A stretch of DNA of 64,000 bases, taken from Chara braunii. Taxonomy: Eukaryota; Plantae; Charophyceae. A program made the translations under genes and the position numbers. Where the stretch lies: NCBI GenBank assembly GCA_003427395.1, contig BFEA01000013.1, positions 4,168,168 to 4,232,167 on the forward strand, given 5' to 3'. A model generated the notes under the pieces. That model was given only the letters and a program-made list of their open reading frames with translations, did not search any database and was not told where the DNA came from. Below are positions 11,599-61,799 of this stretch, piece by piece (the first letter of the stretch is position 1; every line of letters begins with the position of its first letter).

Positions 11599-12695
11599 TG
11601 CAAGGAAAATGAGCAACAGCGAGATGACAATTCCAAATTACATCATCACATTGAAAGCCAGATAGTCACACCGTGTCCAGAGAGCAGCATTGCACCAATA
11701 ATACACCAATGGAGGTTCGTAGTACTGAAAACCAATNATCATCACATTGAAAGCCAGATAGTCACACCGTGTCCAGAGAGCAGCATTGCACCAATAATAC
11801 ACCAATGGAGGTTCGTAGTACTGAAAACCAATATCAAGGAGAGCTTTCTCTCTCCGCCAACAACACAAGAGTCCAGCTCTTCACACTCCTATTTGGCGCT
11901 CAGCGCCCAGCCTACTCCTGCACAGCTACGATCAGCCTACTAATTGACAATGCAACTGTTGACATCAGCGGCAACCCGAAGTACTTGAAGATGTCGCCCA
12001 AATGCAGACCATCGCCAATACAAGGTATGTTCCCTCACATCATCATCATCATCATCCTTCACCCTTCCCTGACTTTACACCCACGTCGTCCTTCCTTACA
12101 CCCGAAGACCACTCATGCGCCTCACTGTAGTCCAAGCCCACCAGCCATGGTGGCTGGGCTATGGCGCTGCCCTCAGCAGCGCCCTTCTTCCCTGCACGAC
12201 CGCACATGATGCACCTCGCCTCTCAGCGCCAGCAGCAGCCCACGAGCCTTTGCTCCTGCAGCACTGCCGATAGCATGCGAGTGTCTGAAAATGAGGCTCC
12301 GAGTGGCGAGCTCTTTCCTATATGGAAAGAGCCTGCCTGCTTCGCAGCCTGGCTGGACTTGGCCTGGGCCCAGAAGCTTCCGGTAGGCCCCAGGATGCTG
12401 CGTGCTACTTTGCAGCTACTGGGCCTCTGTTGGTTAGGCCTCCCAAATGTCAGTGTATGAGGCTGCGTTTCTCGTTTAGGGCCTGCTTGCTTCAGAAAGG
12501 CCCAGAAGGCCGGGGAAATGTCTTGGTTGCTCGGCCTGTGTTTCGCTCAACTAACTGGCGCGTCGCAACTGCCTGGACCCCAAATATGAAATTGACAATA
12601 AAATGCCTCTTGTGATAAGTTAGGCCCGCCTTCACTTAGGGCGGGCACCACTGCAACCGGGGCCCTTAGGCCTGCTGAGGACCCACATCCTCGCA
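11599..12695 (-). repeat. 5' LTR, containing a ~97-bp duplication around a single N
   Basis: Matches 3699-4705. Confidence 0.95.
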
Positions 12696-19500: not shown

Positions 19501-22036
19501 GTCGTTCATGTGCTGAGTTACACGCAGACTTTTTTGGTGCTACAGTGACTTACCTAGATGCAAGTACTAAACTGCAGCAACATATCAAAGTTGCGTACAC
19601 TAACGATCCCGTTTACAGTGAGCCAATTAAGAGGGTATAAACTGACCACATGAAGTCCTAGACTACAGAATGACTGGCAGACTGCTGTTCGAAACGACTG
19701 ACAGGTTTGACATGCTCTGTGTCTCGAATTACGAGACTGTCAAAAGTCTAATGTTAGGGGAATGCCACGACACTGAGGGCATTTCGGTTGGTGGAAGACC
19801 TAATATGCTAATCTCCTCCAGCGGCATGAAGCATGATTGCATCGGCCACACTCAGGGTTGCCAAGTATGCTAGCGGAACAAGAGTTCCACGAAGGCCCCC
19901 CTTGGATTGTTGAGACCGCTACCTGTCCCATTCAGTCCTGGTGACTCCGTGTCCATTAACTTTATCGATACGGAAGTCAAAAGCAGAAACGAGAAGAGTC
20001 GAGTAATGGTGGTAGTAGATAGATTTAGTAAATTTGTTGTTTTTATTCCGCTGCCCGTTGAGGCGAAGACCGATTTAGTGATCCGCGAGTTCTTTAATAA
20101 TTGGGTCAAGGATTACGGCCACTCACTGATGATAGCTAGTGACCGTGATAGTAGGTTCACCAGCGAGCACTGGCAACAACTAATGAAAGTTTATGGATCA
20201 AAATTGACGATGTCATCTGGTAGACACCCGGAAACTAATGGCCAGATGGAGCAAACGATAAGTTGCTCCAGCAAGTGCTTCCCATGTATATTAGACCCGA
20301 CCAGATTGATTGGGACCAACATCTTCCCAAAGTGCAGTCTGCTAACAATTTGGTGCACATGTCTACTGCACGTACCCCGAATGAACTGCACAAGGGTTGG
20401 CAGCCCCGACATCCGATTGAATGCCTGAATCCATATCAGATTCAGAGACTCCCGCTCGATACAAGGGAATTTGCTACCCGGTACGAGAAAAACTTGGAGC
20501 AGGTGAAAACGAACATCCTTCAGGCCCATAATCAGATGGTAGATAAATCCAACAAGCACCAGCGACCTTTGCAATTCGCTGTAGGTGATTTGGTCTGGGT
20601 AAACGTTCCAGAAGAAGAGATTTGGCAGAAACTACTACCTGCTTATAGGGGACCGTGGGAAGTCTTATATGTCAAGGAAGAGGCAGAGGGTCCGTCCTAC
20701 ACTATCGAGATTCCACCCCACTTGCGCACATCTCTATATTCCACTCGTCTAAGTTACTTCCCTGCGTAACAAACGATCAGTTTCCCTCTCGTCGCTCTAT
20801 GATCCCGCCAGATATGGTTGGAGGTTATGATGTAGTTACAATAGTGGCCAAACACGTCTTCCACACAGGCTGCAGAGGGAGACCACAGAGGCAGTACAAA
20901 GTTAGATTTGCCTATCAAGAACCCAGCGAAGATCGCTGGTTCCCTAACGAGGAATTAATACACACCAGCCCCTCACGTTGTTTCCTTTTATGAGAGGGTG
21001 CGGAGGGGAATGAATGTGTACGACAGATAAAACTGAGATTTTTCTCGGAGGACCTCAAAATTAGGCCGGTGGGAGTGAAAGGATTCACGTTGTAAACACC
21101 CCTGTGGCCCGGTACCAGGGTCCCAAACCGTCCCAGGCAGCCCAGGTTCCAGGCTGTCCCAGTAGGGTAGGTCGTATAGTCCCTAGGCTGAAGCGTCGTA
21201 GGTTGGTAGGTGTCAGTACCGAAACGTCACAGGTCGGTGAAAGTTAGTGGTACCCGACAAGAAAAGTCCAGTCCCAAGTTCAATTTTGCAGCATGTCCCA
21301 GGAAAGTCCGGAAGGTACCGGATCGACAAAATGTTTGCAGCAGACAGGCCGCGGCCGACCGGTACTGGTCTGAAGCAGGCCAAACCAAGTCGAGTCCTAT
21401 ATTTAGCTGCTACAGTGCAGCGGCTCATCACTTGTTCAAATTGCAAGATGCGGAAGCGCTGCTGCTGCTTGTGCGTTAAGGCAACTTGGGCACTTCGTGC
21501 CTGGAGGAGGAAGTGGGCACTTGACAGTTACTCCATAGCCAGGGTAGAGGGAGGTAGGAGGTAGGGTGGCCATAGCCGCCGAGTGTGATAGCTCACCTGA
21601 GTGGGTGTATCCAGGGTGATGATCTAGGATATAGGGAGCAAAGTGAGAGAGAGAGAGAGAGGGGGAGAGAGAATCCATAGCCGCCAACCAGTTGAGATCA
21701 AGTCTAAGTGCGTGTGTGCAGTAGAGCAGCTGGTGACATANNNNNNNNNNNNNNNNNNNNNNNNNNNNNNNNNNNNNNNNNNNNNNNNNNNNNNNNNNNN
21801 NNNNNNNNNNGAGATCAAGTCTAAGTGCGTGTGTGTGCAGTAGAGCAGCTGGTGACATAAACATTTCTTGTATAAAAATAATCAATTTATTATTATTGAG
21901 AATTATTGTTAATTTGGTGATGGCTCCCACATGTGTTGATTGTATGTCGGCTTTGGTTTCTCACGTGTGTACTCTCATGTGAATGTTCATGGCATGTTTG
22001 CAAGGTGGGATGCTGATGAGGACTTGGGCCATTTCA
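16560..22036 (+). mobile_element. Heavily decayed Ty3/gypsy chromovirus; 5' LTR missing
   Basis: Gag remnant with CLKC knuckle, LVDSGST protease, YLDDIL RT, RNase H, integrase (SDRDSRFTS) and chromodomain. PPT at 21063-21075 is followed by the LTR. Same family as 1-3572. Confidence 0.9.
21076..22036 (+). repeat. 3' LTR (TGAAA...TTTCA)
   Basis: Has terminal inverted repeats and follows the PPT. Homologous in reverse to 59952-60630, which lies next to a PBS. Confidence 0.88.
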
Positions 22037-22963
22037 CAGAGCACCCATTTCATTGCCTCAGTTTCTGAAAACATTTTTTATCGAAAGACAACCGGTCTTG
22101 GGGGAGGTGGAATCCAGTGACACGAATGAAGAAGTCTGGGAACATTTTGCTGGTACCTGTCTGCCAGAGAAGTCTTGATGCCTCCACAGTTTCTTGGTGT
22201 TTGGGCGGGCTAAAAGACAGTGCTCCAGGTTTCCTATTTTGCCTCCCTCACAGATGGTACAAAGCTCCTTTAAACCTACCACTACCTCTGAGCCTCTTTT
22301 TGCCAAGACAGATCCCCACTGCGCACCAAGGCTCGCCGAAGCACCAGCGCAGTATTTCTTTCTGTTTTTGGTGGCTGGCGTCGCCAGCCATTGGGGTCTG
22401 GTAGCCCCAAGCCTCCGAAGAACCCGGAATCATACTTTTCCAATTCTCGACGTCGTAGTGGTGGTTTAATCTGCTTATTTGCTCTCTGCTTCTTCGCTCT
22501 CTGCTTCTCCACTCGTTCAGCCATTCATTGACCAGCGGCGCTAGGTAGAGGATCAACCACTGCATGCTCCTTCGTCCTGGCTCCATTTCCATTCTGGGGA
22601 GCATCAGTCCGGTTCCTATTCCACCGGCAAGTCAGAATAACAGGATACATCATAAGTATTCACCCACGCTTCCTTCCGTCTGGCCGAAGGACCCCTGACC
22701 AGCATTGATTGCTCCAACATCGTGGAGGATTGACTGTCAGCTTGCCCTGCTTCATCCTTTCCTCACAGGTCTACTGCAAAAACCTGTCGTATAAAACATG
22801 ACTAGCGAGAAAGGTCCTAGAAGCTGCCAAATCTGCCAATTTTGTCTATACTGTAAGACCCCCTTATGAGCTACATGAGAACTCTGCTATTCTGAACCCT
22901 GTTTGCCCTAATTCTGTCCAAACCATAAACCCTAAGCCCTCAACTTTTTTTTTTCTTTTTTTT

Positions 22964-23050
22964 ATGTGGTCCGATGGACCACGGATCATATATTAAACTG
23001 ATCAGAACAGATACTACACTTGATCTTAGCCAAAAGGCCAAAAAAGGTAT
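22964..23050 (-). ncRNA. U2: U2 snRNA 5' fragment (nt 1-87), polyadenylated pseudogene
   Basis: - strand reads ATACCTTTTTTGGCCTTTTGGCTAAGATCAAGTGTAGTATCTGTTCTGATCAGTTTAATATATGATCCGTGGTCCATCGGACCACAT then an A-tract. It has the plant-type 5' end, branch-recognition GTAGTA and stems IIa/IIb, but no Sm site. Confidence 0.95.
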
Positions 23051-23381
23051 TCTGAATTTTTTTTATTATTATTATTTTTTTTTCCAGTTCGTATCTTACT
23101 ATCCGTATCCTATTTCCTTGAACCCTACAATTCCCTTCACTTATCCTTCCTTGCCTTGCCTCACTTTAATTCTTATGGNTGGCTGGGAGGCCCGAGTGGA
23201 CCGCATTGAATACTTCCGTGAGGAAGGTTTTACCACCCCTCACCCCTGCCTAAGTTAACCTGTACTATCTCCGTTTGCCAAAACATATAAACCCAGTTCG
23301 AATCTTACTATCCGTATCCTATTTCCTTGAACCCTACAATTCCCTTCACTTATCCTTCCTTGCCTTGCCTCACTTTAATTC

Positions 23382-26300
23382 TTATGGCATCCTAAGTTCC
23401 TGTGTCAACAGATGATCATCCGCAGTGTCCTCCTGTCGCTCATCTTTAAACCAATTGAAAATAAGTCTCTCTCCTTCTACGGTCGCTACTTTGCCTTGGG
23501 GTAGTACCCTTTTCTGGAATTTGGTTAGAATATCCCTTGCCTTTTCTGAGTTAAAAGCCACTTGCTTCTTTGTCCTAATCCATAACGCCCTAATCTCTAT
23601 CTCCAACAGGCTATAGAGAGTTGCCTTGGCTTCCACATCAGAATCTTGCCCACCACCTGCTGACATCTTCGTTTCCATATTGTCCATAAAGTGTATTGTC
23701 TCAGTAGACGAATGATATATTTATGGCCATCCCACCATTCCTTGGGCACCTCGCTTCCTATCAATATTAATTTCCTGTTTCGCGGGAAGGGGAAGTCCGT
23801 AGTATGTGTCCACAATGAACGAGCTATGGACCAGAGATAATCTGCTTCAGGGCAATGGAGCAAACAATGGATCAGAGTTTCCTGAACGCTCGTCATACAC
23901 ATAACACAGTCTTGATCTGACTCATTCCTATTGAGCCTGCTTCGCTTATCGAACAACCAGACATTGAATGGGAGTGCTACATGACAGATATGCCCCTGAC
24001 CTTGGCCAATCTAATATTGTGCAAAGATGACCATGGTAACCTTTCTACTTGTTCCCTTGGTATATCCAGTTTCTTTTCCCATCTTATCAACAAAGTCTGA
24101 TCCTGATGGCAAGATCTCACCCTCAAACGGTAGCCCAATTTAGTGGTGTAATGAAGTATATTGATTCTCCTGCTTACTTTGGATGAACTTCCCCTGATGT
24201 TCCATGCCCACTCTGCTGGATCAATTTTGAGATCCCAAATAGATGTCAGTGGCTCAAATATCGTAAAATCGTCATTCTCAACCACTCTTACCTTTCTTGA
24301 AATGGTTTTCTTAATGACTATCAGAACCCTGGAATCCTTATCCAGCATACTGACCGTGACTCCTGGAGATAGTATTGTGAACATATCTGCTTCCAACCAC
24401 TGTTTAGAAGGTCCAACCTCCTGTCTTATGCGAAAGGCTACCTCTGGCTCATTAGTAGGGACCATTGTTGCCCAATCCCCCCATCCCCATTTGTCTAGTT
24501 CCTTCAATGTCCTTATCCACTCATCCGGAATGGAGAGAAGAATGTCATTCAGATTTTCAATTAGTCTATGACAGCCCTTCATTTCCTCCCTCAGTTCCCT
24601 ACCTATTTTCCATCGCCCCCTGCTGACTGACCAGAGATGTTTGACCTGCCGTACTCCATGTTCTAACCACTTCCCCCACTTGGCGTCCTTCGTTGTTAGT
24701 GTTCTAGGTCTTCCTTGAGAGTCTTCCTTGAGAGTCTTTTAACCATGGATTACAAAATAACGGTTGTCTAAGCACTTCATCCTTCGTCTTAGGTTGTCTA
24801 ACTCTTGCTGGGAAGACCTCTGCCCAGATTTTGAGCAATTGAGCCCAGTATGTACCTCTAGTTGCATCATCCTCTGCTAATTGTTCCCTCGTTCTATCCT
24901 TCTTGGTCCAACCCTTGCAGAATAGCCAAAATGTACCCTTCATATTGGAAGGCGTTTTATATCTGGCCATCTGTCGTATGTGGTCAAGTACCAATGGAAC
25001 CCACCGTAAGTGAGGTTGTGTTAACAACTTAATGATCCACTTAGTTTGTAGTGATCTTATCTGCTGTCCCGGATCCAAGACTCCCATCCCTCCCCTGTCT
25101 TTTGGTTGAATAACTTGGTTCCATGATACCTTTGATATAAAGTTGGCTCTTGTTGGATTTGCTGTCCACAAATATGCTGCCGCCACCTTCCTCAGTTTTT
25201 GTAGTGCATATGCAGGTGGAGACCATATTGTTCCAACATACCATAACATAAAGAAAATTGAAGCATTTATGACTAGTACCCTCCCGAACAGTGAGATATT
25301 TATTTCCGACCACGCCGCCATCTTCAATAGCATTTTTGTCATATGATCAGGTGCCATGGAGTGATGGGGACCCGTGTCCGCCATTCTGATCCCCAAGTAT
25401 CTCATTGTTTGATCTGGCGGTAACCAAGTCATCCTCCCATAATTCTGTGGCTGATACTGTGGCTGTTGGTCATCATATGATAGCCACCACCCCAACGTCT
25501 TCGGCCAATTGATTCTCATCTCCAATGCCAATTGGAATGCCGCCATTGCTCTCATAAGGGCTTGAAATGAAGAGTCTGTTGCTCTGATTAGTACCGTCAG
25601 ATCATCCGCAAATAATATTGTTGTTGGCAAATGTGTGACACGTCCCTGCTGATCCGTTTCAATAATCAGATGGTCTATTAAAGGGTCTTTTCTAAGGAAC
25701 GAAGCAATAGCTTCCATTATAAACAAGAAAATGGGAGCCGCTAAAGGGTCTCCTTGCCTGACCGACCTCGTCATTTTATACCTATCTGACAGGTGGCCAT
25801 TAACTTGGACCTTTCCGTGTGCATCATTATACAATACACGAATCCATTTTTGAAAGTTAGAGCCCACTCCCATCTTCTCCATACATTGCTGTAAAAAGTT
25901 CCAGTTGACTTGATCGTACGCTTTTTCAAAGTCGAAGAAGTTGATCGCTGCGTTTATCCTCCTATTCGTAATGTACCTTACTGATTCTGATAAAGTCATG
26001 ACATTATCTAATATAAATCTTCCCGGAATGAAACCTGTTTGATCTAGGTGGAAACATCCTTCTGTAACCTTCCTGAGGTGGTTAGCCAGTGCCTTAGCCA
26101 CTATCTTGTGAGTGAGGGTCAACAGTGTAATTGGTCTGTAATTTTTGATATCCCTAAGGTCTCCCTTCTTATATTGCAGAATAACGATGCCAGTCGCCAA
26201 CTCTACCCCCAAGCCCTCTCTCTGCCAGGCTTGATGGAGAAAAGATTCGTATTCTTCTCCTAAGATAGGTCAATACTCCACCCAAAATTCCTTAGTCAAT

Positions 26301-30850: not shown

Positions 30851-31199
30851 TGTGAACGACATTTCACCCTGTGATAGCCCGTAAACCAAAGTCCAACTAA
30901 CCACCGTCCAATACAACCAGCCTCTTACTCCCTGTGTCTTACCTTGTATGTAAATCCCAACTCCGTCTATCCCCTCTTCCCTCCCAAGCAGCGTCCACTC
31001 CCCTGAACCAGAGTGTAGCCAACCCCCTTCCACTACGGTTAGCCCCTTACTCTCTGAATCAACTCCTCTTGCCTCCAAAGCTGTATCCACCCCTTATGTT
31101 GCTAGTTTCGCCCCGTTTTTTTTTTTTTTTTTCCCCCCAATTGATTACTCCTAGTTGTAGTCTATGCTACTTGCCACTTTCCCCTTTTCACTCTCTTCT

Positions 31200-32035
31200 T
31201 ATGCCCTATGACCTTCCCTTCTTTTCTACTCCTCTCTCCCTTCCAATTGCCCTTCCTCCTTATGGCCCGTGACTTCCTCTTTCTATACCCCCTCTTTCTC
31301 TTCCACGTGGACCTATGCCACGTCACCTCCTCGCCACTCTCCCTCCCCCTTCTCTTTCCTTATGACTCTTCACTTCCCTTTCCTTTGCCACGTCATCTCC
31401 TCCGTTTGTAACATGTCACCCTCTCGCCCACTTCTCTTTCCTTATGACCCGTCGCTTCTTTCCTTTGCCACGTTGCCCATCACCTTCCCTTCTTTTCTAC
31501 TCCTCTCTCCCTTCCACTTGCCCTTCCTCCTTATGGCTCATGACTTCCTCTTTCTATACCCCCTCTTCTTCTCCTCACGGACCTATGCCACGTCCCTCCT
31601 CGCCACTCACCCTCCCACTTCTCTTTCCTTATGACCCTTCACTTCCCTTTCCTTTGCCACGCCATTCCTCCGTTTGTGACACGTCACCCTCCCACCCACT
31701 TCTCTTTCCTTATGACCGTCGCTTCTTTCCTTTGCGACGTTGCCCGTCACTTCACTTTTGTTTGCCCTGTCAGCCCCCCCGAGTTAGAATAGCAATGTTT
31801 TCACTTCTTTCCTTTGCCACGTTGCCCGTCACTTCACTTTTGTTTGCCACGTTCACTTCTTTCCTTTGCCACGTTGCCCGTCTCTTCACTTTTGTTTGCC
31901 ACGTCAGCCCCCCCCGAGTTAGAATCTTCTCTTCTACTCGGACCTATGCCACGCCACCTCCTTGCCACTCTCCCTCCCACTTCTCTTTCCTTATGATCCT
32001 TCACTTGCCTTTCCTTTGCCACGTCGTCTTCACTT
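31200..32035. repeat. Degenerate pyrimidine-rich tandem repeats upstream of the LINE
   Basis: Recurring CTTCTCTTTCCTTATGAC and TTTCCTTTGCCACGT units, with ~270-bp higher-order copies. Confidence 0.85.
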
Positions 32036-33669
32036 GACCCCCTCATCCAAGTTATTTCCTCCCCCCTTCTCTTTCACTTTAATGCATCTCAAGGCCCTCA
32101 GATGCACGTCATTGACAGTGCGAAAATCAATTGAGTGTTGAGTTCACCCTTATNNNNNNNNNNNNNNNNNNNNNNNNNNNNNNNNNNNNNNNNNNNNNNN
32201 NNNNNNNNNNNNNNNNNNNNNNNNNNNNNNNNNNNNNNNNNNNNNNNNNNNNNNNNNNNNNNNNNNNNNNNNNNNNNNNNNNNNNNNNNNNNNNNNNNNN
32301 NNNNNNNNNNNNNNNNNNNNNNNNNNNNNNNNNNNNNNNNNNNNNNNNNNNNNNNNNNNNNNNNNNNNNNNNNNNNNNNNNNNNNNNNNNNNNNNNNNNN
32401 NNNNNNNNNNNNNNNNNNNNNNNNNNNNNNNNNNNNNNNNNNNNNNNNNNNNNNNNNNNNNNNNNNNNNNNNNNNNNNNNNNNNNNNNNNNNNNNNNNNN
32501 NNNNNNNNNNNNNNNNNNNNNNNNNNNNNNNNNNNNNNNNNNNNNNNNNNNNNNNNNNNNNNNNNNNNNNNNNNNNNNNNNNNNNNNNNNNNNNNNNNNN
32601 NNNNNNNNNNNNNNNNNNNNNNNNNNNNNNNNNNNNNNNNNNNNNNNNNNNNNNNNNNNNNNNNNNNNNNNNNNNNNNNNNNNNNNNNNNNNNNNNNNTC
32701 CAGAAACCAAGCAGCATCATACACATGAAACCAGATAGTCCTGACCTCGAACCAAAAGCAGAATTGCAACTCGAGTTCCACCAAATAAGAGCACAGCAAA
32801 AGCTCACAAGTGACAATGTTGGAATAGTCTCATCATCATTAACAATGAACCAATGTCGAATCCCTATCTGGCGCTCAGCGCCCAGACTACGAATGACAGA
32901 TCTTATCTAGCCTATCTACAATGCCGCTGGTGACGCCAACAGCTTTCCGAAGTACGAGCAGATCTCGGCCAGTGCCGTTCGCATCAAGCACCAGGTATGT
33001 CCCTCGCTTCACTCACAACCTCGATCCTCCACACAGATGCCACATGCACCCAAGGATCACCATGTGCCCCATCCAGCAACGCGCAGGCCAGCCCGGCTAT
33101 GGCTGCCTGCTTCCTCCCTGCTCGCCCGTGAGCGAGTAGGCACTCGCTCCAGCAGCTGGCGCAGCAGCACTTGCGGATAAGCAGCGAGTGCCCGAATGCC
33201 AAATGCGAAGGCAGGCACTTTCCTTTATGGAAGTGGCCTGCCTGCTGCGTGCTGCCTGGCTGCGCTGGGCCCCTGCCCAGAAGCTTCCGATAGGCCCCAA
33301 GTGGCTGAGGCCAGAGTATTCCGCAGGGCCCCGGGTGGTTACGCGTATCTAACTGCCGTGTGTGCTGCATGCAGATTGTGCCTCGTGTCTGTCCCAGGGC
33401 CTGTGCCCAAAAAAATAGGAAGGGCCTAGAAGCCCTTGACCAGATACTGTTGCCCACGGCCTGGGTCCATTCAACCAACTGACACAGCATAACTGTCTGA
33501 GCCCCTCTTTGCGAAAAAGGACAAAATACTAAAATAGGCCTCATGTGATGTTACAGGACCGCCTTCACTTAGGGCGGCCATCCTTGCTGAAAGGCCCAGG
33601 ATGCTAAGGGCGGGCTGTGGCCTCACATTCTCTCCTCCATACTTTGACAGTCCTCTGAGAAGTTCAATC

Positions 33670-35684: not shown

Positions 35685-36461
35685 GGGGTAAGTCGACACG
35701 TGGAGGAGAGAAAGGGAGGAAGGAGGGAGGAAGGAGGGAGGAGGACCGAGTAAGTCGACACGTGGAGGAGAGAAAGGGAGGAAAGAGGGAGGAAGGAGGG
35801 AGGAGGACCGAGTAAGTCGACACGTGGAGGAGAGAGAAAGGGAGGAAGGAGGGAGGAAGGAGGGAGGAAGGAGGGAGGAGGACCGAGNGGAGGAAGGAGG
35901 GAGGAGGACCGAGTAAGTCGACACGTGGAGAACAGAGAAAGGGAGGAAGGAGGAGAGAGAGATGGATGAAGAAGAACGGAGACTCAGAGAAAGGAGGCGG
36001 CGGAGTGAATGGCCCTGTCGCTAACCTAACAAGGAAAAAAAAAAAAAAAGTTGATTGGAAGGTGGGTATTTGAAAGAGAGAGAGGAGGAGGAGGGAAGAG
36101 CGAAGAGAGAGAGAGAGAGAGAGAGGAGGGAGAAAGGAGCGAGGAAGGAAGAGGGCAGAGGACCGAGTAGGCCGACACGTGGAGGAGAGAGAAAGGGAGG
36201 AAGGAGGAGCGAGAAAGGGATGGAGAAGAAGGGAGAGAGGAGGAGGGAGGAAGGTTGTAGCAAAGAGGGAGTAGCGAGTCGAGTAAGTCGCCACGTGGAG
36301 GAAGGAGGGGTTGAGGCATCATGCGGAGTGAATGGCCTTGTCGCTAACGTAACAAGTACTAACAACAGAAAAAAGAAAAGAAAAGAAAAGAAAAAAAAGT
36401 TCGTTGGATGGTGGAGTATTTGAACGAGGGAGAGAGGAGGAAGAGGGAAGAGCGAAAAGAG

Positions 36462-42422: not shown

Positions 42423-42482
42423 ACAAACTGTTTCATCGGAGTTTCACCGACTCATCAGGAGGCTAAACCCTTAACAGTCTGC
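42423..42482 (-). ncRNA. Type III hammerhead ribozyme, decayed copy
   Basis: - strand: GCAGACTGT T AAGG GTTTAG CCTC CTGATGA GTCGG TGAAACT CCGAT GAA ACAGTTTGT. One stem I mismatch. Confidence 0.8.
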
Positions 42483-46703: not shown

Positions 46704-46763
46704 GCAGACTGTTGAGGGTTCAGCCTCCTGATGAGTCGGTGAAACTCTGACGAAACAGTTTGT
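46704..46763 (+). ncRNA. Type III hammerhead ribozyme
   Basis: Stem III GCAGACTGT/ACAGTTTGT, cleavage triplet GTT (after 46713), stem I GAGG/CCTC, CTGATGA core, stem II GTCGG/CTGAC, GAAA. Confidence 0.88.
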
Positions 46764-47644
46764 CACAGCCCCTCGTTTGTTGTCCTCTTCTCCCTCTCTG
46801 CCTACGGTTTACCGGGCAGTTCTATTTGACGATATATATATATGTGACGATATATATATGAGTCGGTGAAACTCTGACGAAACGGTTTGTCACAGCCCCT
46901 CGTTTGTTGTCCTCTTCTCTCTCTCTGCCTACGGTTTACCGGGCAGTTCTGTTTGTGACGATATATATATAATAAAATATGTGACGATCACTTCTCACAA
47001 TCACAGTGGGACTCCTCACAGCCATATATATGTTTGTGATCGCAGGCAGTCAAATCCAAATCCGAGTCATGGTACATACCAACAATCACATCAAAGAGTC
47101 AAACAAAAATCCATGCACTACACGGAGTCAATTGCGACCAATCTCTATACTCATACCCCTCGCTTTAGCCATGCAAGCCCCAGCCTTTGTCCAACCAACC
47201 ATAATTAAATACTCAGTACCTTTGTTAAATGGCCATTCAATAAAAGTTTGGGTGAAACCTTAATAAAACAATAAAATCACTAAGGCTAAAGCCTTTCAGG
47301 TTGGGTATTGAAGGTGAATTGGAGTTGAGTCGTAAACCAACGAATCGGCAACCGACCTGTTATCAGTGATAACAAAAGGCGATCCTTATAGGATCAAGTT
47401 GAATCTAGTCCTGATCTCAAGTCAAACGTCCAGAAAGACATGTAACGTAAGACAGACCAATCCCAAGCTCGAACTACAAGTCCGTGGAGACTAATCTCCA
47501 CACCATAATCCCACCAAATTTCGTTCTACTTACCCAAGTCTGAGCCTACCTCTAAGCAAGTGCCCAAAGAAAAGGTAGACTTTTGGCAGGATTTTCCCTA
47601 TTCAGGGTGGATTGCCAGTGTCGTCACCTGTCAAAATATAATCT

Positions 47645-48246: not shown

Positions 48247-49064
48247 GAGTTAGGTCATTCATCTTAGAAACAATGCCAACTTTTTGCCTTAGTTATACAC
48301 GAACAGGTTGCACAACTACTTTTCTCTTCCTTGGGCATATAACTAAGCCATTCGTCTTAGAAACAATGTTTAGTCGCCCTGATCTGTTTAAATAGCCAAG
48401 TTATATATACTTCTCTGAACTTAATCTTCAAAAGTGGGCGTAGGACTGAGTCATTCATCCTAGAAACAATGCTCAGCCGGCCCAAGTTACCTTCAATTAT
48501 AGCTCTTAGTTATACTCTCTTGATTAGTGATAAGGCTATAATCAGACCATTTATCTTAGAAACAATGTCTGGCTAGCCTTGTTCTTATACACATATAGAT
48601 ATAGTAATATAGAAAGTCATATTCCTTTGTTCATATTATAATCTTGTGGCCTCAGACTTAGACCATTCATCTTAGAAACAATGTCCAGTCTTTGGCCTGA
48701 ACCTCCCCTCAGAATAAAACAACCAAAAGAGTTGGACCATTTGTCTTAGAAACAATGCTCAACCCTTTTTTCTCAGCACAAAAAAAGAAGAGTACCCTGG
48801 GTCAAGACCCAGAGACTATTCAGAAACCACCCAAAATAAACAGCGACCAGACCATTCATCTCAGAAACAATGTCTGGTCCTCAAAGTTTGCTCAGTCAAT
48901 ATCCCAAAGAAACAATAACCAGGCCATTCATCTTAGAAACAATGCATGGTTAAATTAAATAAACACAGCGACCAAGCCATTCATCTTAGAAACAATGCTT
49001 GGCTCTTCAGAAAACAGAACAAAATACAACAGTCAGACCATTCATCTTAGAAACAATGCCTGAC
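48247..49064. repeat. Array of ten stem-loops with a conserved 20-nt core CATTCATCTTAGAAACAATG and unique spacers
   Basis: Cores start at 48256, 48349, 48452, 48548, 48664, 48738, 48853, 48925, 48978 and 49039. Each is flanked by its own short inverted repeat. Confidence 0.93.
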
Positions 49065-52000
49065 CCTATAAAACTCATTCAAACACAAGCAAAATTGCCT
49101 TCCTCTCAGCCTTCCCCCTGATGCAACCCCTTTTCCACAATCTGCTTTCCAGACAAACAACAAAAGCTGAAACTGAAAAATTATGTACACATTATTTTAC
49201 TTAGTCTGGGTTAGGTCCTGAAAGTCAAACTGAAAGTCAAAGTAGGGGTGCACTCAACACACTCAGTCAGATACATAAAAAAAATGTATAACTAGGGGTT
49301 ATAACTGGGTTTATAAGGGAAAGCAATGGTTACCTCTGAGTTCCCTGCCTCCAGAACTCCTCCTGAGTCCCGGAAGAGCTCCCGCAATCGGTGGGCTGAC
49401 TCCCCACAGAGTCTTGCTACAGTCCTAGGGGTTGCAATCCCGCCTGCCGCCTTCCTCTCAGAACCAATAGACTAGACTTAGAGTAAGAAGGGCAGAAGAA
49501 GATAGATTTGAGACTCTCAGATCCAAGAATGGTGCGCTCAGACTCGCGAGAGAGGACCTTTGAATCTTCAGCGCCTAAGGGCCCCGCAATGATGGCCAAA
49601 ATCAGCAGCAGCCCGGTCAAATCTAAGCCAAACTGCCAAAGCTAGCTCCCTGACGACTTCCCAAGTCGCAGCAACAACTCCCTTCGCAAGCTTGATTACG
49701 CCTCCTTTCCCCGTGGTTCCACTGCAGTCCCCCGATGCTAAACAAATGCACTCCCAGCACCGCAACAGTCCGTAGTAGGCTCTCACAGTTTGCCCTGCAG
49801 CTCCTCTGTTCGACAACAGTGACCCCTTCTCCAAAAGACTTAGTCACTCCCTTAAGCTCACGGCCCCAAACACTTTAGCTTTGGGTGAGTTCGCAACCTC
49901 ACAACATGTCTCTAATTAACTCCGCCGGTAAGATGAACAACATCCCAGCTAGCCGGTGGGTTCGTCGTCCCATAGTCGTCTTTGACCGTCCGTATAACAG
50001 GTTGAGTAATACTCAAGCCCGTAGGCAAATACACAACCTTATGGTTGATTCGTAACTATTCCTCCTCCGACCGGCTTAAAAGCACTCCAGCCAGCTGCCT
50101 AGGTCTGCACCTCACAGTTGGTCCTTGCAACTGCTTCGCATGGTAAGTCAGGCAACACTCCAGTCAACAGGTAAGTCTCCGGGCCCTGCCTCTATTCTCT
50201 CCCTTTTCCTGTCTGCAGGGTGCGCAGCACACTGGAGAACAGGAGCTCTGTAATCCCGTTGGTCTCCTTGGTAAGTAGGCCGCTGGAACGGGCAACACAT
50301 TGGCCAACAAGAAGGGGCTCCTCCCTCTGTAGATTGCCTCTTGCTCCACAGGTAAGCTTCCACCCTCTCATCTCGTCTGCAGCTTCTTCGCTTAACAGGC
50401 TGAATAGCACACTGGCTCACCGGTAAGCCACCATCTCGCTATTCACTCGCAGCCACCTTCGTTCGACGCAGTGAGCAGCTCACCAGCCCACAGGCAAGCC
50501 CCCAAGCCTGCGGTTGGCTCCTCACTTCACCACCTTGACGAGGTGAGTAGCGCACAGTTAGTGAATGAGTCCCCGGTCTATAGCCCGTCACTCCTGTCTA
50601 GTGGAATGCGCACCCCAGGCTGTGGCTCGCTTGTGGCTGCCTCTGATTCTCAACACTCCTGGTCGCCTGCTTCTGTCGCATCTGCTTGAAGCTTGAGGAA
50701 TTAAGATCACGAACGGGAAGAAACCCATGGAGAGGAACGATCTGTAATCAACGAAAAGAAGATCGTCGTCCCGACGAGCAACCACCGATTGGCAATAAAA
50801 CTGCGATTTTCCCAACTAGCTTCATAGGATGAGTATGAATCTTTCACTAAAAGTCATGGCCGATGTGCTGCTATCCAGCCATGAACGCAAAGGGATAAAC
50901 GACCTTCGATAGGATATAAGCTAGATCAGAATGAATCTTCCGCTAGAGTATGGGACTATACACTGCCATCCGTATGCGTACATGTGTGTGAGAGGGAGGG
51001 AGAAAGAGAGAGAGAGAGCTTTCTTGTACAACGAGCGACGTGCTGGCTATCAGGTAAGCCCCCAACTCCACTGCCGCCTCATGCTACTCCGCCGATAGGA
51101 TAAGCAAAATTGAATGTACCTTCCGCTAGAACACGGAAAGATACATTGCCAATTCCAAGTCCGCTTCTCCCGCGCGCGGCTCCAGCCTGTCGGACTGCAA
51201 AACACGTTCACTCTTCCGCAGATCTGAGTTTACCATCAGATGCGTGACGCCTGAAAACCCCCGAGCCTCATCTTCACTTGCCCGTTTCCTACTAACTAGC
51301 GATCGAGGTCACCAAATTTTGACCTCACCATCGCTTCTTTACTCCCAAAAAGACTCACATGACTCGACTTTTATCCCACGCCGTTCCGCAGGAGTAAAAC
51401 CCTCCTAGGCGGCCACACCCTTTAAGTCTTTACTCCCTTGGTCAGACGTGGGCCCTCGGCCAGGTTGCGCCGACGTCAAACTATCCCTAGGGGTTATGCC
51501 CTAGTGGTGCTAAAACTTTACCGTTTAGCTTGGTCTTCCTTGTATGCCTCAAGATTAGCACACGTGGCTGGACGGTGTGTCGCATCAATACCTGTCTATC
51601 GCTGGACTACTCATAGGCCTGTCACACATAAAAGGTATTTACCAGCCCTCCGTGGGACAACACAGAGAAAACATGGCAACCTCTCTACATTCACAAAACA
51701 GAATCACTGCCAGATTCACAAGGCCGTGACTTCCCTAACTTAATCGGAGTCAGGAAGTCACACATCTTAATGACACCTCTCAAAAGTGAACCATTGCGAC
51801 ATTGAAATTTCCACCAATGGCCAAACAAAAGCCTGGTCCTCCTCGTCAGTCTTTATCTTTCAAAATCAGTTTTCCATGCCATTAAATCTATTAACCACCT
51901 TTCATGCGAAAGATGTCTCACTCAATAGGTCTCCCAACCATCCCTCTCTTTTTAGGATGAGCTCTCACATGACCTTCCTTTTAAAACATCTTCCTTCTCT

Positions 52001-59317: not shown

Positions 59318-59355
59318 CTGTCTCTTATACACATCTAGATGTGTATAAGAGACAG
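59318..59355. other. Nextera mate-pair junction adapter (two inverted Tn5 mosaic ends); assembly contamination
   Basis: Exact CTGTCTCTTATACACATCT+AGATGTGTATAAGAGACAG. Confidence 0.98.
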
Positions 59356-59473
59356 ATATATGAGTCGGTGAAACTCTGACGAAACGGTTTGTCACAGCCC
59401 CTCGTTTGTTGTCCTCTTCTCTCTCTCTGCCTACGGTTTACCGGGCAGTTCTGTTTGTGACGATATATATATN

Positions 59474-59938: not shown

Positions 59939-60160
59939 GCTCTGATACCACTGAAATGGTCCAAGTCCTCACCAGCATCCCACCTTGCAAACATGCCATG
60001 AACATCCACATGAGAGTTCACACGTGAGAAACCAAGTTGAGATACAATCAACACATGTGGGGAACCGTCACCAAATTATTATCATTATACAAGAAATGCT
60101 TATGTCGCCAACGGTGCATACACGCACTTAGACTTGATCTCAATTGGTTGGCGGTCATGG

Positions 60161-60246
<86 letters not shown>

Positions 60247-60630
60247 TGTGTGTGTCTGCTCCCTATATCCTAGATCGTCACCCTGGATACACCCACTCAA
60301 GTAAGCTATGTCACTCGGTGGCTATGACCGCCCTACCTCCTACCTCCCTTCACCCTGGCTATGGAGTAACTGTCGAGCACCCACTTCCTCCTCCAGGTGC
60401 GACGTGCCCAAGTTGCCTTAACGCACAAGCAGCAGCAGCGCTATCTCATCTTGCAATTTGAACAAGTCATGAGCCGCTGCACTGTAGCAGCTAAATATAG
60501 GACTTGACTTGGCTTGGCCTGCTTCAGACCGGTATCGGGCGGCCGCAGCCTGTCTGCTGCAAACATTTTGTCAGTCCAGTACCTTCCGGACTGTCCTGAG
60601 ACATGCTGCAAAATTGGACTTGGGACTGGA
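59939..60630 (-). mobile_element. PBS (59939-59950) plus partial 5' LTR (59952-60630) of the 21076-22036 family
   Basis: TGGTATCAGAGC on the - strand, 1 nt from the LTR end. Clear reverse similarity to ~21258-22036. Confidence 0.88.
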
Positions 60631-61799
60631 AACAGAGTATCCTATCCAAGTTTGTCAAAGTTTGGCTGGTGGGAAGGAAAATCGCAGAGTTGACAGACTT
60701 CAACATACGGTGGAAAGAATGGCATAACTCGGAAACGAGGTGGAGAAGTTCAGGACTCCACCCTTCGGACGGTCGGCAGGGTCAACAGACCACATAAGGA
60801 TGATAAAAAATCCTCAAAGCTACCCAAGAGCAACCTTTCTGTCGTTTCTCGGTTTTCCTTGTTTTTTCAAAGCTTTAGGTGACAGATTTTCAGAAAGGAA
60901 ATCTGAGAGGGAATTCAGGGAATGGCACGCTGACAGTCAATCCTCCTATCAGGAGTAATCAATGCTGGTCAGGGTTCCTTCGGCCATACGGAAGGAAACG
61001 TGAGGGTGTACCATGTTGTATTCAATTTTGACTTGCCGGGGGAATAGGAACCGGATTGACTCTCCCCAGAAAAAAAAAGGACCTTCCTGAGGAAAAAAAA
61101 AAAAAAAAAAAAGGAGCCACGGCAGAGAAAATGCACCACGGTTCTAAGGCTGCCCTAAGGTCGCCATAACTATGGTCTTGTATGGACAGTAGGGCACACA
61201 CCCTTTGGCCTGTATTTGCTATGAGACACAGACTTATATGTCGATTTTAGGTCTTTTTTTCATGTCCTGAGTTTTGTAAGCTAATTATAACTTGTTCAGT
61301 AGGTCGGTAGACTAAGCTGGTCAGCCCAGTGCTGTCTAAACACAAATTCAATATTCTATTCCACGAGAAGAAGAAGAAGAACCAGGTGGTCCGACTTTCC
61401 CTGTTTTGGTGCCTTTACGGTGATGGCAGGTGTTGGAAGGTGCTTGGCTCCTTGTGGACTGCATGTATTTCAACCTCCATTATTTGGTGTGACCATGCTA
61501 GGGTCATCTCATGGCTTTGACCCTAATGGGATTACAACAGGTAGGAGGAATTCTCTCCCTGTCTTCACACAAACCCAAAGATTGGATATTGTTATTCTGT
61601 TCTTTATCAAGAGGTATCGTTTGTTGCAGAGGAACAAAGGAATACAGTGGGGACAACGAACACTTGAAGATCTGTTGCTGCATCACACATAAGAAAACAG
61701 ACAAAAGAGAGCAGAATCAGCAGATGTTTTTGAAAACAATAAAGATGTGCATAGAAAAATAAGGAAACTAACAAAAAAAACACAAACATGTCTCTCTTT

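Follow-up and report, generated by a model that had tools for sequence, protein, structure and literature searches.

A U2 snRNA fragment behind the 3' tail of a LINE in Chara braunii: most likely a variant of LINE-made snRNA retrocopies and chimeras

In the window, the stretch of 64,000 nucleotides of Chara braunii DNA analysed here, the minus strand carries a LINE 3' UTR, which is followed by a 27-nt A-rich tail, the 6-nt spacer TTCAGA, nucleotides 1 to 87 of the U2 snRNA and a 19-nt A tract. This order, which had been reported by the first-pass annotation, proved accurate both by sequence and by comparison with Rfam. The locus is most likely a variant of the LINE-made snRNA retrocopies and chimeras, namely a compound insertion in reverse order, and it likely has no function. 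We give about even chances to an origin in one compound, LINE-driven insertion, in which an adenylated U2 fragment would have been copied first, then 6 nt of target DNA and finally the LINE RNA. The probabilities attached to this and to the competing readings are judgements rather than computed values. The locus comprises the following features:

22888..22944, minus strand: 3' flank with GTTGA, a 43-nt G-rich block (22939-22897), TTCAGA and ATA (sequence and G4Hunter-style score)
22945..22963, minus strand: A tract of the U2 fragment, A8-G-A10, 19 nt (sequence read)
22964..23050, minus strand: U2 snRNA nt 1-87 (Rfam RF00004, 90.3 bits)
23051..23056, minus strand: 6-nt spacer TTCAGA, which recurs together with U2 nt 1-3 at 22896-22888
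23057..23083, minus strand: A-rich LINE tail, A9-TAATAATAAT-A8 (sequence read)
23084..23178, minus strand: repeated 95-nt segment of the LINE 3' UTR (corresponding to 23293-23387), 94/95 identical, without the terminal motif of the family
23179..23179, no strand: single-N scaffold join, at which the contig ends overlap by 3 nt
23180..23267, minus strand: LINE 3' motif of 88 nt, common to very many elements with unlike upstream sequence (contig depth)
23180..31052, minus strand: decayed L1/Tx1-type LINE, apparently full length, ~7.9 kb (Pfam domains and layout)
31053..31064, minus strand: putative 5' junction AGTTGA+TTCAGA, the only occurrence of this 12-mer in the window

The U2 fragment spans 87 nt, from nt 1 at position 23050 to 22964, where stem IIb ends, and its score of 90.3 bits (gathering score 46, E 1.3e-16) makes it the sole gathering-level Rfam match across the 64 kb. 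It has a plant-type 5' end and no Sm site, and the 3' half of U2, around 94 positions of the Rfam model, is absent. All pairs of stem IIb are intact and an outer pair of stem IIa is kept via a double change, which suggests that the fragment likely derives from a functional U2. The fragment itself is dead, and in agreement with this its stem IIa has lost the innermost pair. The junction between LINE tail and U2 is known from the assembly; the tail is a repeat and was skipped in the mapping of contigs and reads.

The adjoining LINE has a 5' UTR of approximately 190 nt, an ORF1 region starting at 30862 and an ORF2 at around 27788-23382, in which an AP endonuclease is located N-terminal to the reverse transcriptase (RT) and which also contains a zf-RVT domain. 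The Pfam match to RVT_1 is strong (E 2.9e-29), the one to Exo_endo_phos lies just under the cut-off (E 8.9e-5, 22.8 bits), and zf-RVT is likewise under it (E 8e-4). ORF2 is damaged by two premature stops and four frame changes; in a simulated decay of 1%, 2.1 stops are expected. The search for homologs covered proteins of 913-2605 residues. Among the 120 matches listed, the nearest is a protein of Chara braunii with 79% identity over 32% of the RT frame, the others share 23-32% identity, with one exception, and none is a named Keno protein. In a protein search with the 5' frame of the LINE, sister 5' ends were found in 0 of 158 candidates. The 5' end of the element probably lies at 31052, as judged from the junction match described below. 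Around 50 nt upstream of this putative junction, purine-rich imperfect repeats occupy 31116-32150 on the minus strand and end in A17; this block may be the 3' end of another retroelement.

Two short matches at the outer junctions link the LINE to U2. The 12-mer at 31064-31053, located 190-200 nt upstream of ORF1, consists of AGTTGA, which equals the last A of the U2 A tract and the next five bases, and of TTCAGA, the sequence of the spacer; that is, it reads like the 3' flank from which the 43-nt block has been removed. A single 6-mer is expected by chance within the 278 nt upstream of ORF1 in 8.7% of cases, and a joined pair of 5 and 6 bases in the same interval in 1.0e-4 under a strict rule (200,000 trials) and in 1.35e-3 under a looser one (40,000 trials). 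On the other side, the spacer together with U2 nt 1-3 (TTCAGA+ATA) recurs at 22896-22888, 48 nt beyond the A tract. The chance of this recurrence is 3e-4 per 100 nt in a Markov model and 242/38,042 by empirical counts, or 76/34,424 when tandem blocks are removed. As the two matches are short and were identified post hoc, the chance values are optimistic. The intervening 43-nt block has GGG at both ends and four G3 runs, and its G4Hunter-style score of 0.95 is reached by 1.9% of the minus-strand 43-mers; our guess is that it folded and was skipped.

Judged from the sequence, 22888-22944 is likely the original target, and a damaged target-site duplication likely has its 5' copy at 31053-31064, with 5-6 bp in contiguity followed by 6 bp after the 43-nt gap. 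The recurrence of the spacer and U2 nt 1-3 in the local flank points to copied target DNA, and the spacer thus likely stems from the target rather than from the flank of a U2 gene. The outer repeat encloses both LINE and U2, which argues that U2 came first or that both came together, and that the N at 23179 is unlikely to connect unrelated loci. Within one short, damaged duplication, the full-length LINE and U2 therefore likely form one block. The caveat raised earlier, by which the U2-linked 3' end and the full-length LINE might be parts of two different copies, is probably incorrect, as the 12 bases at 31064-31053 tie the 5' end of the element to the flank on the U2 side. The putative nick site is unlike the L1 consensus TTTT/A. 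A long canonical duplication around U2 alone was considered and rejected: the flank after the A tract matches just 5 bases in 32150-30860. Elsewhere in the window, a second A tract of 15 nt is followed by GTTGA at 36049 (36035-36054, plus strand), which may be chance or a hint of target preference.

The first-pass annotation had also noticed two LINE 3' ends around the N at 23179, and both are real in the assembly, with 94/95 identity between the repeated segments. Two DNA runs (X1 and X4) and two RNA runs, four of the 24 runs listed, were mapped to 23048-24700. The summed contig depth in the peak bin of 23180-23267 is 35,285 (X1) and 55,187 (X4), compared to 248-1,157 (X1) and 220-2,235 (X4) in 26 bins of the LINE body, although depth does not equal copy number. 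Diverse loose ends are found in contigs at 23257-23267, and the 88-nt segment is present in RNA reads, too. This segment appears to be a 3' motif common to many LINE or SINE-like families and may mark stringent 3'-end recognition. Among the 24 of 356 loose ends listed, 37 and 31 contigs share a common loose end at which the family sequence continues beyond 23180, as do 7 of 106 and 28 of 143 RNA reads. As the family normally continues past this position, the U2-adjacent LINE end is atypical. Only 6 of 1,214 and 6 of 1,253 contigs of the two DNA runs fit both 95-nt copies, and most of the second copy has a depth of 0 in X1 and of 28.5 in X4; holes of this kind are no proof of absence.

The family continuation starts with TAA, and the join at the N would hence read GCCATAA, the same 7-mer that opens the repeated segment at 23388. 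This shared 7-mer suggests that the 95-nt repeat likely is a real switch at short homology, which would have replaced the last bases of the family. Its one difference is the value predicted at ~1% decay; dating by the repeat did not separate the models. Folding of the LINE 3' UTR end was no better than that of shuffled sequences (z -0.62).

Downstream of U2, the flank at 22795-22582 aligns to 60874-61081, and the alignment stops short of the U2 junction. Both the flank and this paralog adjoin related LTR-like repeats (21267-22036 and 59952-60630). A weak zinc-finger-like motif at 22264-22184 on the minus strand, within the flank at 22040-22944, gave E 0.28, which is not significant, against a profile of 91 homolog C-termini; we guess that this flank is the end of an older LINE ORF2. 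Protein searches with one of the three frames of the downstream flank (0 of 603 candidates and 0 in 1.84 billion) yielded neither sister 5' ends nor an empty site, and metagenome scans for sister loci found nothing. Further away, hammerhead-like (type III) matches were observed at 46706-46761 (plus strand, 42.6 bits, E 4e-6) and 42425-42480 (minus strand, 35.4 bits, E 4e-4), neither of which reaches the gathering score of 48.5. They sit in a dispersed repeat with further copies at 46849-46970 and 59351-59472, which is possibly a retrozyme- or Penelope-type element. Nine dispersed units of ~40 nt with a conserved core are irregularly spaced (53-187 nt) over 48247-49069 (repeat family D12). An inverted pair of 19+19 nt at 59318-59355, ~120 nt from the N at 59473, is likely an assembly artefact; it resembles a Tn5 mate-pair junction adapter. 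Single Ns at 11737 and 35888 are adjacent to overlaps of 95 and 25 nt, respectively, which are typical of unmerged contig ends.

How could LINE and U2 have arrived in one compound insertion? The steps given here, like the empty site, are a reconstruction built on the anatomy of the locus, the two matches with their null rates and the usual end of the family. At the nick in the target, the LINE reverse transcriptase would prime on a U2 RNA that had been cut at the 3' side and adenylated, and copy this RNA up to nt 1. The end of the U2 cDNA could then pair via three bases with target DNA around 50 nt away, from which the 6-nt spacer would be copied. A jump to the tail of the LINE RNA, or re-priming there before the junction was sealed, would allow the whole element to be copied, and its 5' end would finally be joined to the same target end. 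Of the two copies of the duplication, the 5' one would have lost the 43-nt G-rich block, or the 3' one would have acquired it later, and the 95-nt repeat would require one more switch at the 7-nt homology, at insertion or later. As the same target end would be used, no second coincidence would be needed to account for the presence of TTCAGA on either side of the LINE. The ages of LINE and U2 agree, as both the two ORF2 stops and the single difference in the 95-nt repeat fit ~1% decay. Precedents for single steps have been described: 3'-truncated snRNA copies with poly(A) are documented in print (PMC4476161), RT jumping onto the end of target DNA is described for L1, and extra 5' nucleotides are found in 12-15% of truncated L1 and Alu insertions (both PMC2912911); double template jumps are known for a fungal LINE (PMC2104539). 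However, the model requires several rare steps, 0% of the human U2 copies analysed in PMC4476161 carry poly(A), and the human U2/L1 chimeras of the same source are inverted, with U2 on the 5' side.

A possible but rather doubtful alternative is serial insertion, in which the adenylated U2 fragment was retroposed first, its 5' junction was rearranged, and a later LINE insertion at this 5' border duplicated 6-7 bp, (A)TTCAGA. TTCAGA is indeed present on both LINE flanks (31058 and 23056), the nesting leaves only U2 first or a single event as options, the window is rich in nested retroelements, and no jump from DNA to RNA is required. However, the cut of the later LINE would have to fall precisely on U2 nt 1 and the duplication to comprise precisely the six extra bases, which would be unlikely without a hot spot, given the few LINE insertions per 64 kb, and there is no clear age gap between LINE and U2. 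The earlier proposal of serial insertion into a U2 retrocopy is still live with regard to the retrocopy, with TTCAGA on both sides in its favour and the exact cut at nt 1 as its cost. Its variant, a U2-derived SINE, fares worse, as there is no SINE body at the locus. It appears very improbable that a SINE, or a U2-first chimera that includes the following sequence, begins with U2 here and that the LINE merely landed in front of it. SINEU elements have U2 heads (PMC4494074), and the downstream flank is itself repeated; but nothing except an A tract follows U2, the alignment of the paralogs ends before the U2 junction, and the first bases of the flank recur at the LINE 5' junction, which marks the flank as target rather than body.

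The first-pass annotation had further suggested a LINE that inserts just upstream of U2 start sites, and this idea has been weakened by the spacer and U2 nt 1-3 in the local flank and by the atypical LINE end. We consider it improbable that there is a LINE lineage whose target site lies 6 nt in front of U2 starts, and that a source copy was read into U2, polyadenylated at nt 87 and moved here with a 5-6 bp duplication, taking the first part of U2 with it by 3' transduction. U2 does begin exactly at nt 1, read-through would account for a cut and adenylated U2, and the lack of the terminal family bases in this copy could favour read-through. Target specificity is frequent in Tx1-clade elements (PMC4494074), and full-length L1 elements can have extra 5' bases owing to transcription that starts further upstream (PMC2912911). 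Under such targeting, however, the new target would contain the spacer and ATA again by mere coincidence (probability 3e-4 to 6e-3), and the common end of the family differs, with just the few contigs mentioned above fitting both 95-nt copies. Moreover, no plant snRNA promoter-like motif is found upstream of 31052, where the best match agrees with the motif in 5 of 10 positions; this absence excludes only insertion into a U2 gene at exactly that place. A small probability likewise falls to an assembly artefact, in which the N would connect ends that belong to different LINE copies, and the DNA itself would lack the 95-nt repeat or the link between LINE and U2. The junction lies only 95-130 nt from a contig end, none of the mapped contigs crosses the N at 23179, sequences overlap at other single Ns, too (95 nt at 11737, 25 nt at 35888), and adapter-like sequence near the N at 59473 speaks for unclean contig ends. 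Against this, the 5' junction match links the two contigs independently of scaffolding, the join falls at a 7-nt homology as predicted from the family continuation, and three DNA runs, which may themselves be the source of the assembly, contain 50-56% of 46 sampled words from 22700-23178. For this interval no RNA run was listed, a result without weight in either direction.

How does the locus compare with known associations of LINEs and snRNAs? It had been stated earlier that the order fits neither Keno and Utopia nor L1 chimeras in which the snRNA comes first, and this is correct: U2 is present from nt 1 and the LINE lies 5' of it. Keno, a member of the Tx1 clade, and Utopia, which uses a restriction-like endonuclease, share with our locus a LINE 3' end followed by U2 sequence, and Keno also shares the AP endonuclease (Exo_endo_phos being just under the cut-off here). 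According to PMC4640811, however, the 3' flank of both elements starts at U2 nt 39 and runs downstream through the gene, whereas here U2 starts at nt 1 after a 6-nt spacer and is cut at nt 87. Membership in Keno was rejected because of this position, and membership in Utopia, which has a single ORF, because of the ORF1 region, the APE-RT-zf-RVT layout and again U2 from nt 1. In SINEU (Kojima 2015), U1- or U2-derived heads form the 5' part of retroposed, multi-copy elements (PMC4494074), a likeness that ends with the U2-derived 5' part; a U2-headed SINE was rejected, since no body or LINE-derived tail follows U2 and the flank behaves as target. Template-switch chimeras such as U6/L1 also combine an snRNA and a LINE in the same orientation, likely in one insertion. 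In these, a truncated LINE is preceded by the snRNA on its 5' side, and the case with U2 is an inverted one (PMC4476161; bioRxiv 10.1101/2025.02.02.635956). In contrast, the LINE comes first here, apparently full length and with a tail of its own, and U2 stands on its 3' side; the order LINE, tail, spacer, U2 excludes membership in the U6/L1 type. The 2025 preprint screened LINE 5' ends and is therefore silent on the order LINE-then-snRNA.

The nearest class for the U2 part is formed by the polyadenylated, 3'-truncated snRNA retropseudogenes of Doucet et al. 2015, which are LINE-made and share with it the intact 5' end, the 3' cut, the A tract and probably the short flanking repeats. The U2 fragment has exactly this combination of an intact 5' end, a truncated 3' end and an A tract. 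That study describes five human cases with poly(A) and duplications, which derive from U1, U5 and U6 and none from U2 (PMC4476161). Compared to these, the snRNA is U2 here and the apparent duplication also encloses a full-length LINE. The tripartite LINE chimeras of Gogvadze et al. 2007 (PMC2104539) likewise involve at least two template jumps per insertion; those consist of three RNAs, whereas the middle template here would be 6 nt of target DNA. The tailless retropseudogenes of Noll et al. 2015, with eight U2 cases in maize (PMC5322556), are similar in having a 5'-intact, 3'-truncated U2; however, the 19-nt A tract argues against this class, which is defined as lacking an A tail, and no A tract is found in the putative 5' copy of the target. 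No LINE-then-U2 case and no targeting upstream of U2 was found in the literature consulted, and the supplements of PMC4476161 and of the 2025 preprint could hold one.

As a single dead locus, this case carries modest weight. If targeting upstream of U2 were nevertheless true, it would be a new target-site strategy and, for a green-algal L1/Tx1-type lineage, a third independent mode of U2 targeting, one that leaves the transcribed gene uncut. If the compound reading is true, the locus would be a fossil of a LINE reverse transcriptase that moved from a cellular RNA to target DNA and on to the LINE RNA, the reverse of the order in known snRNA/L1 chimeras. For plant L1 elements, both stringent and relaxed 3' recognition have been described, and the retroposition of U2 would bear on the stringent RNA recognition proposed for L1s of early green plants (PMC3472496). 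Under the compound reading, the LINE system would have retroposed an adenylated U2 decay product, even though many elements share a conserved 3' motif.
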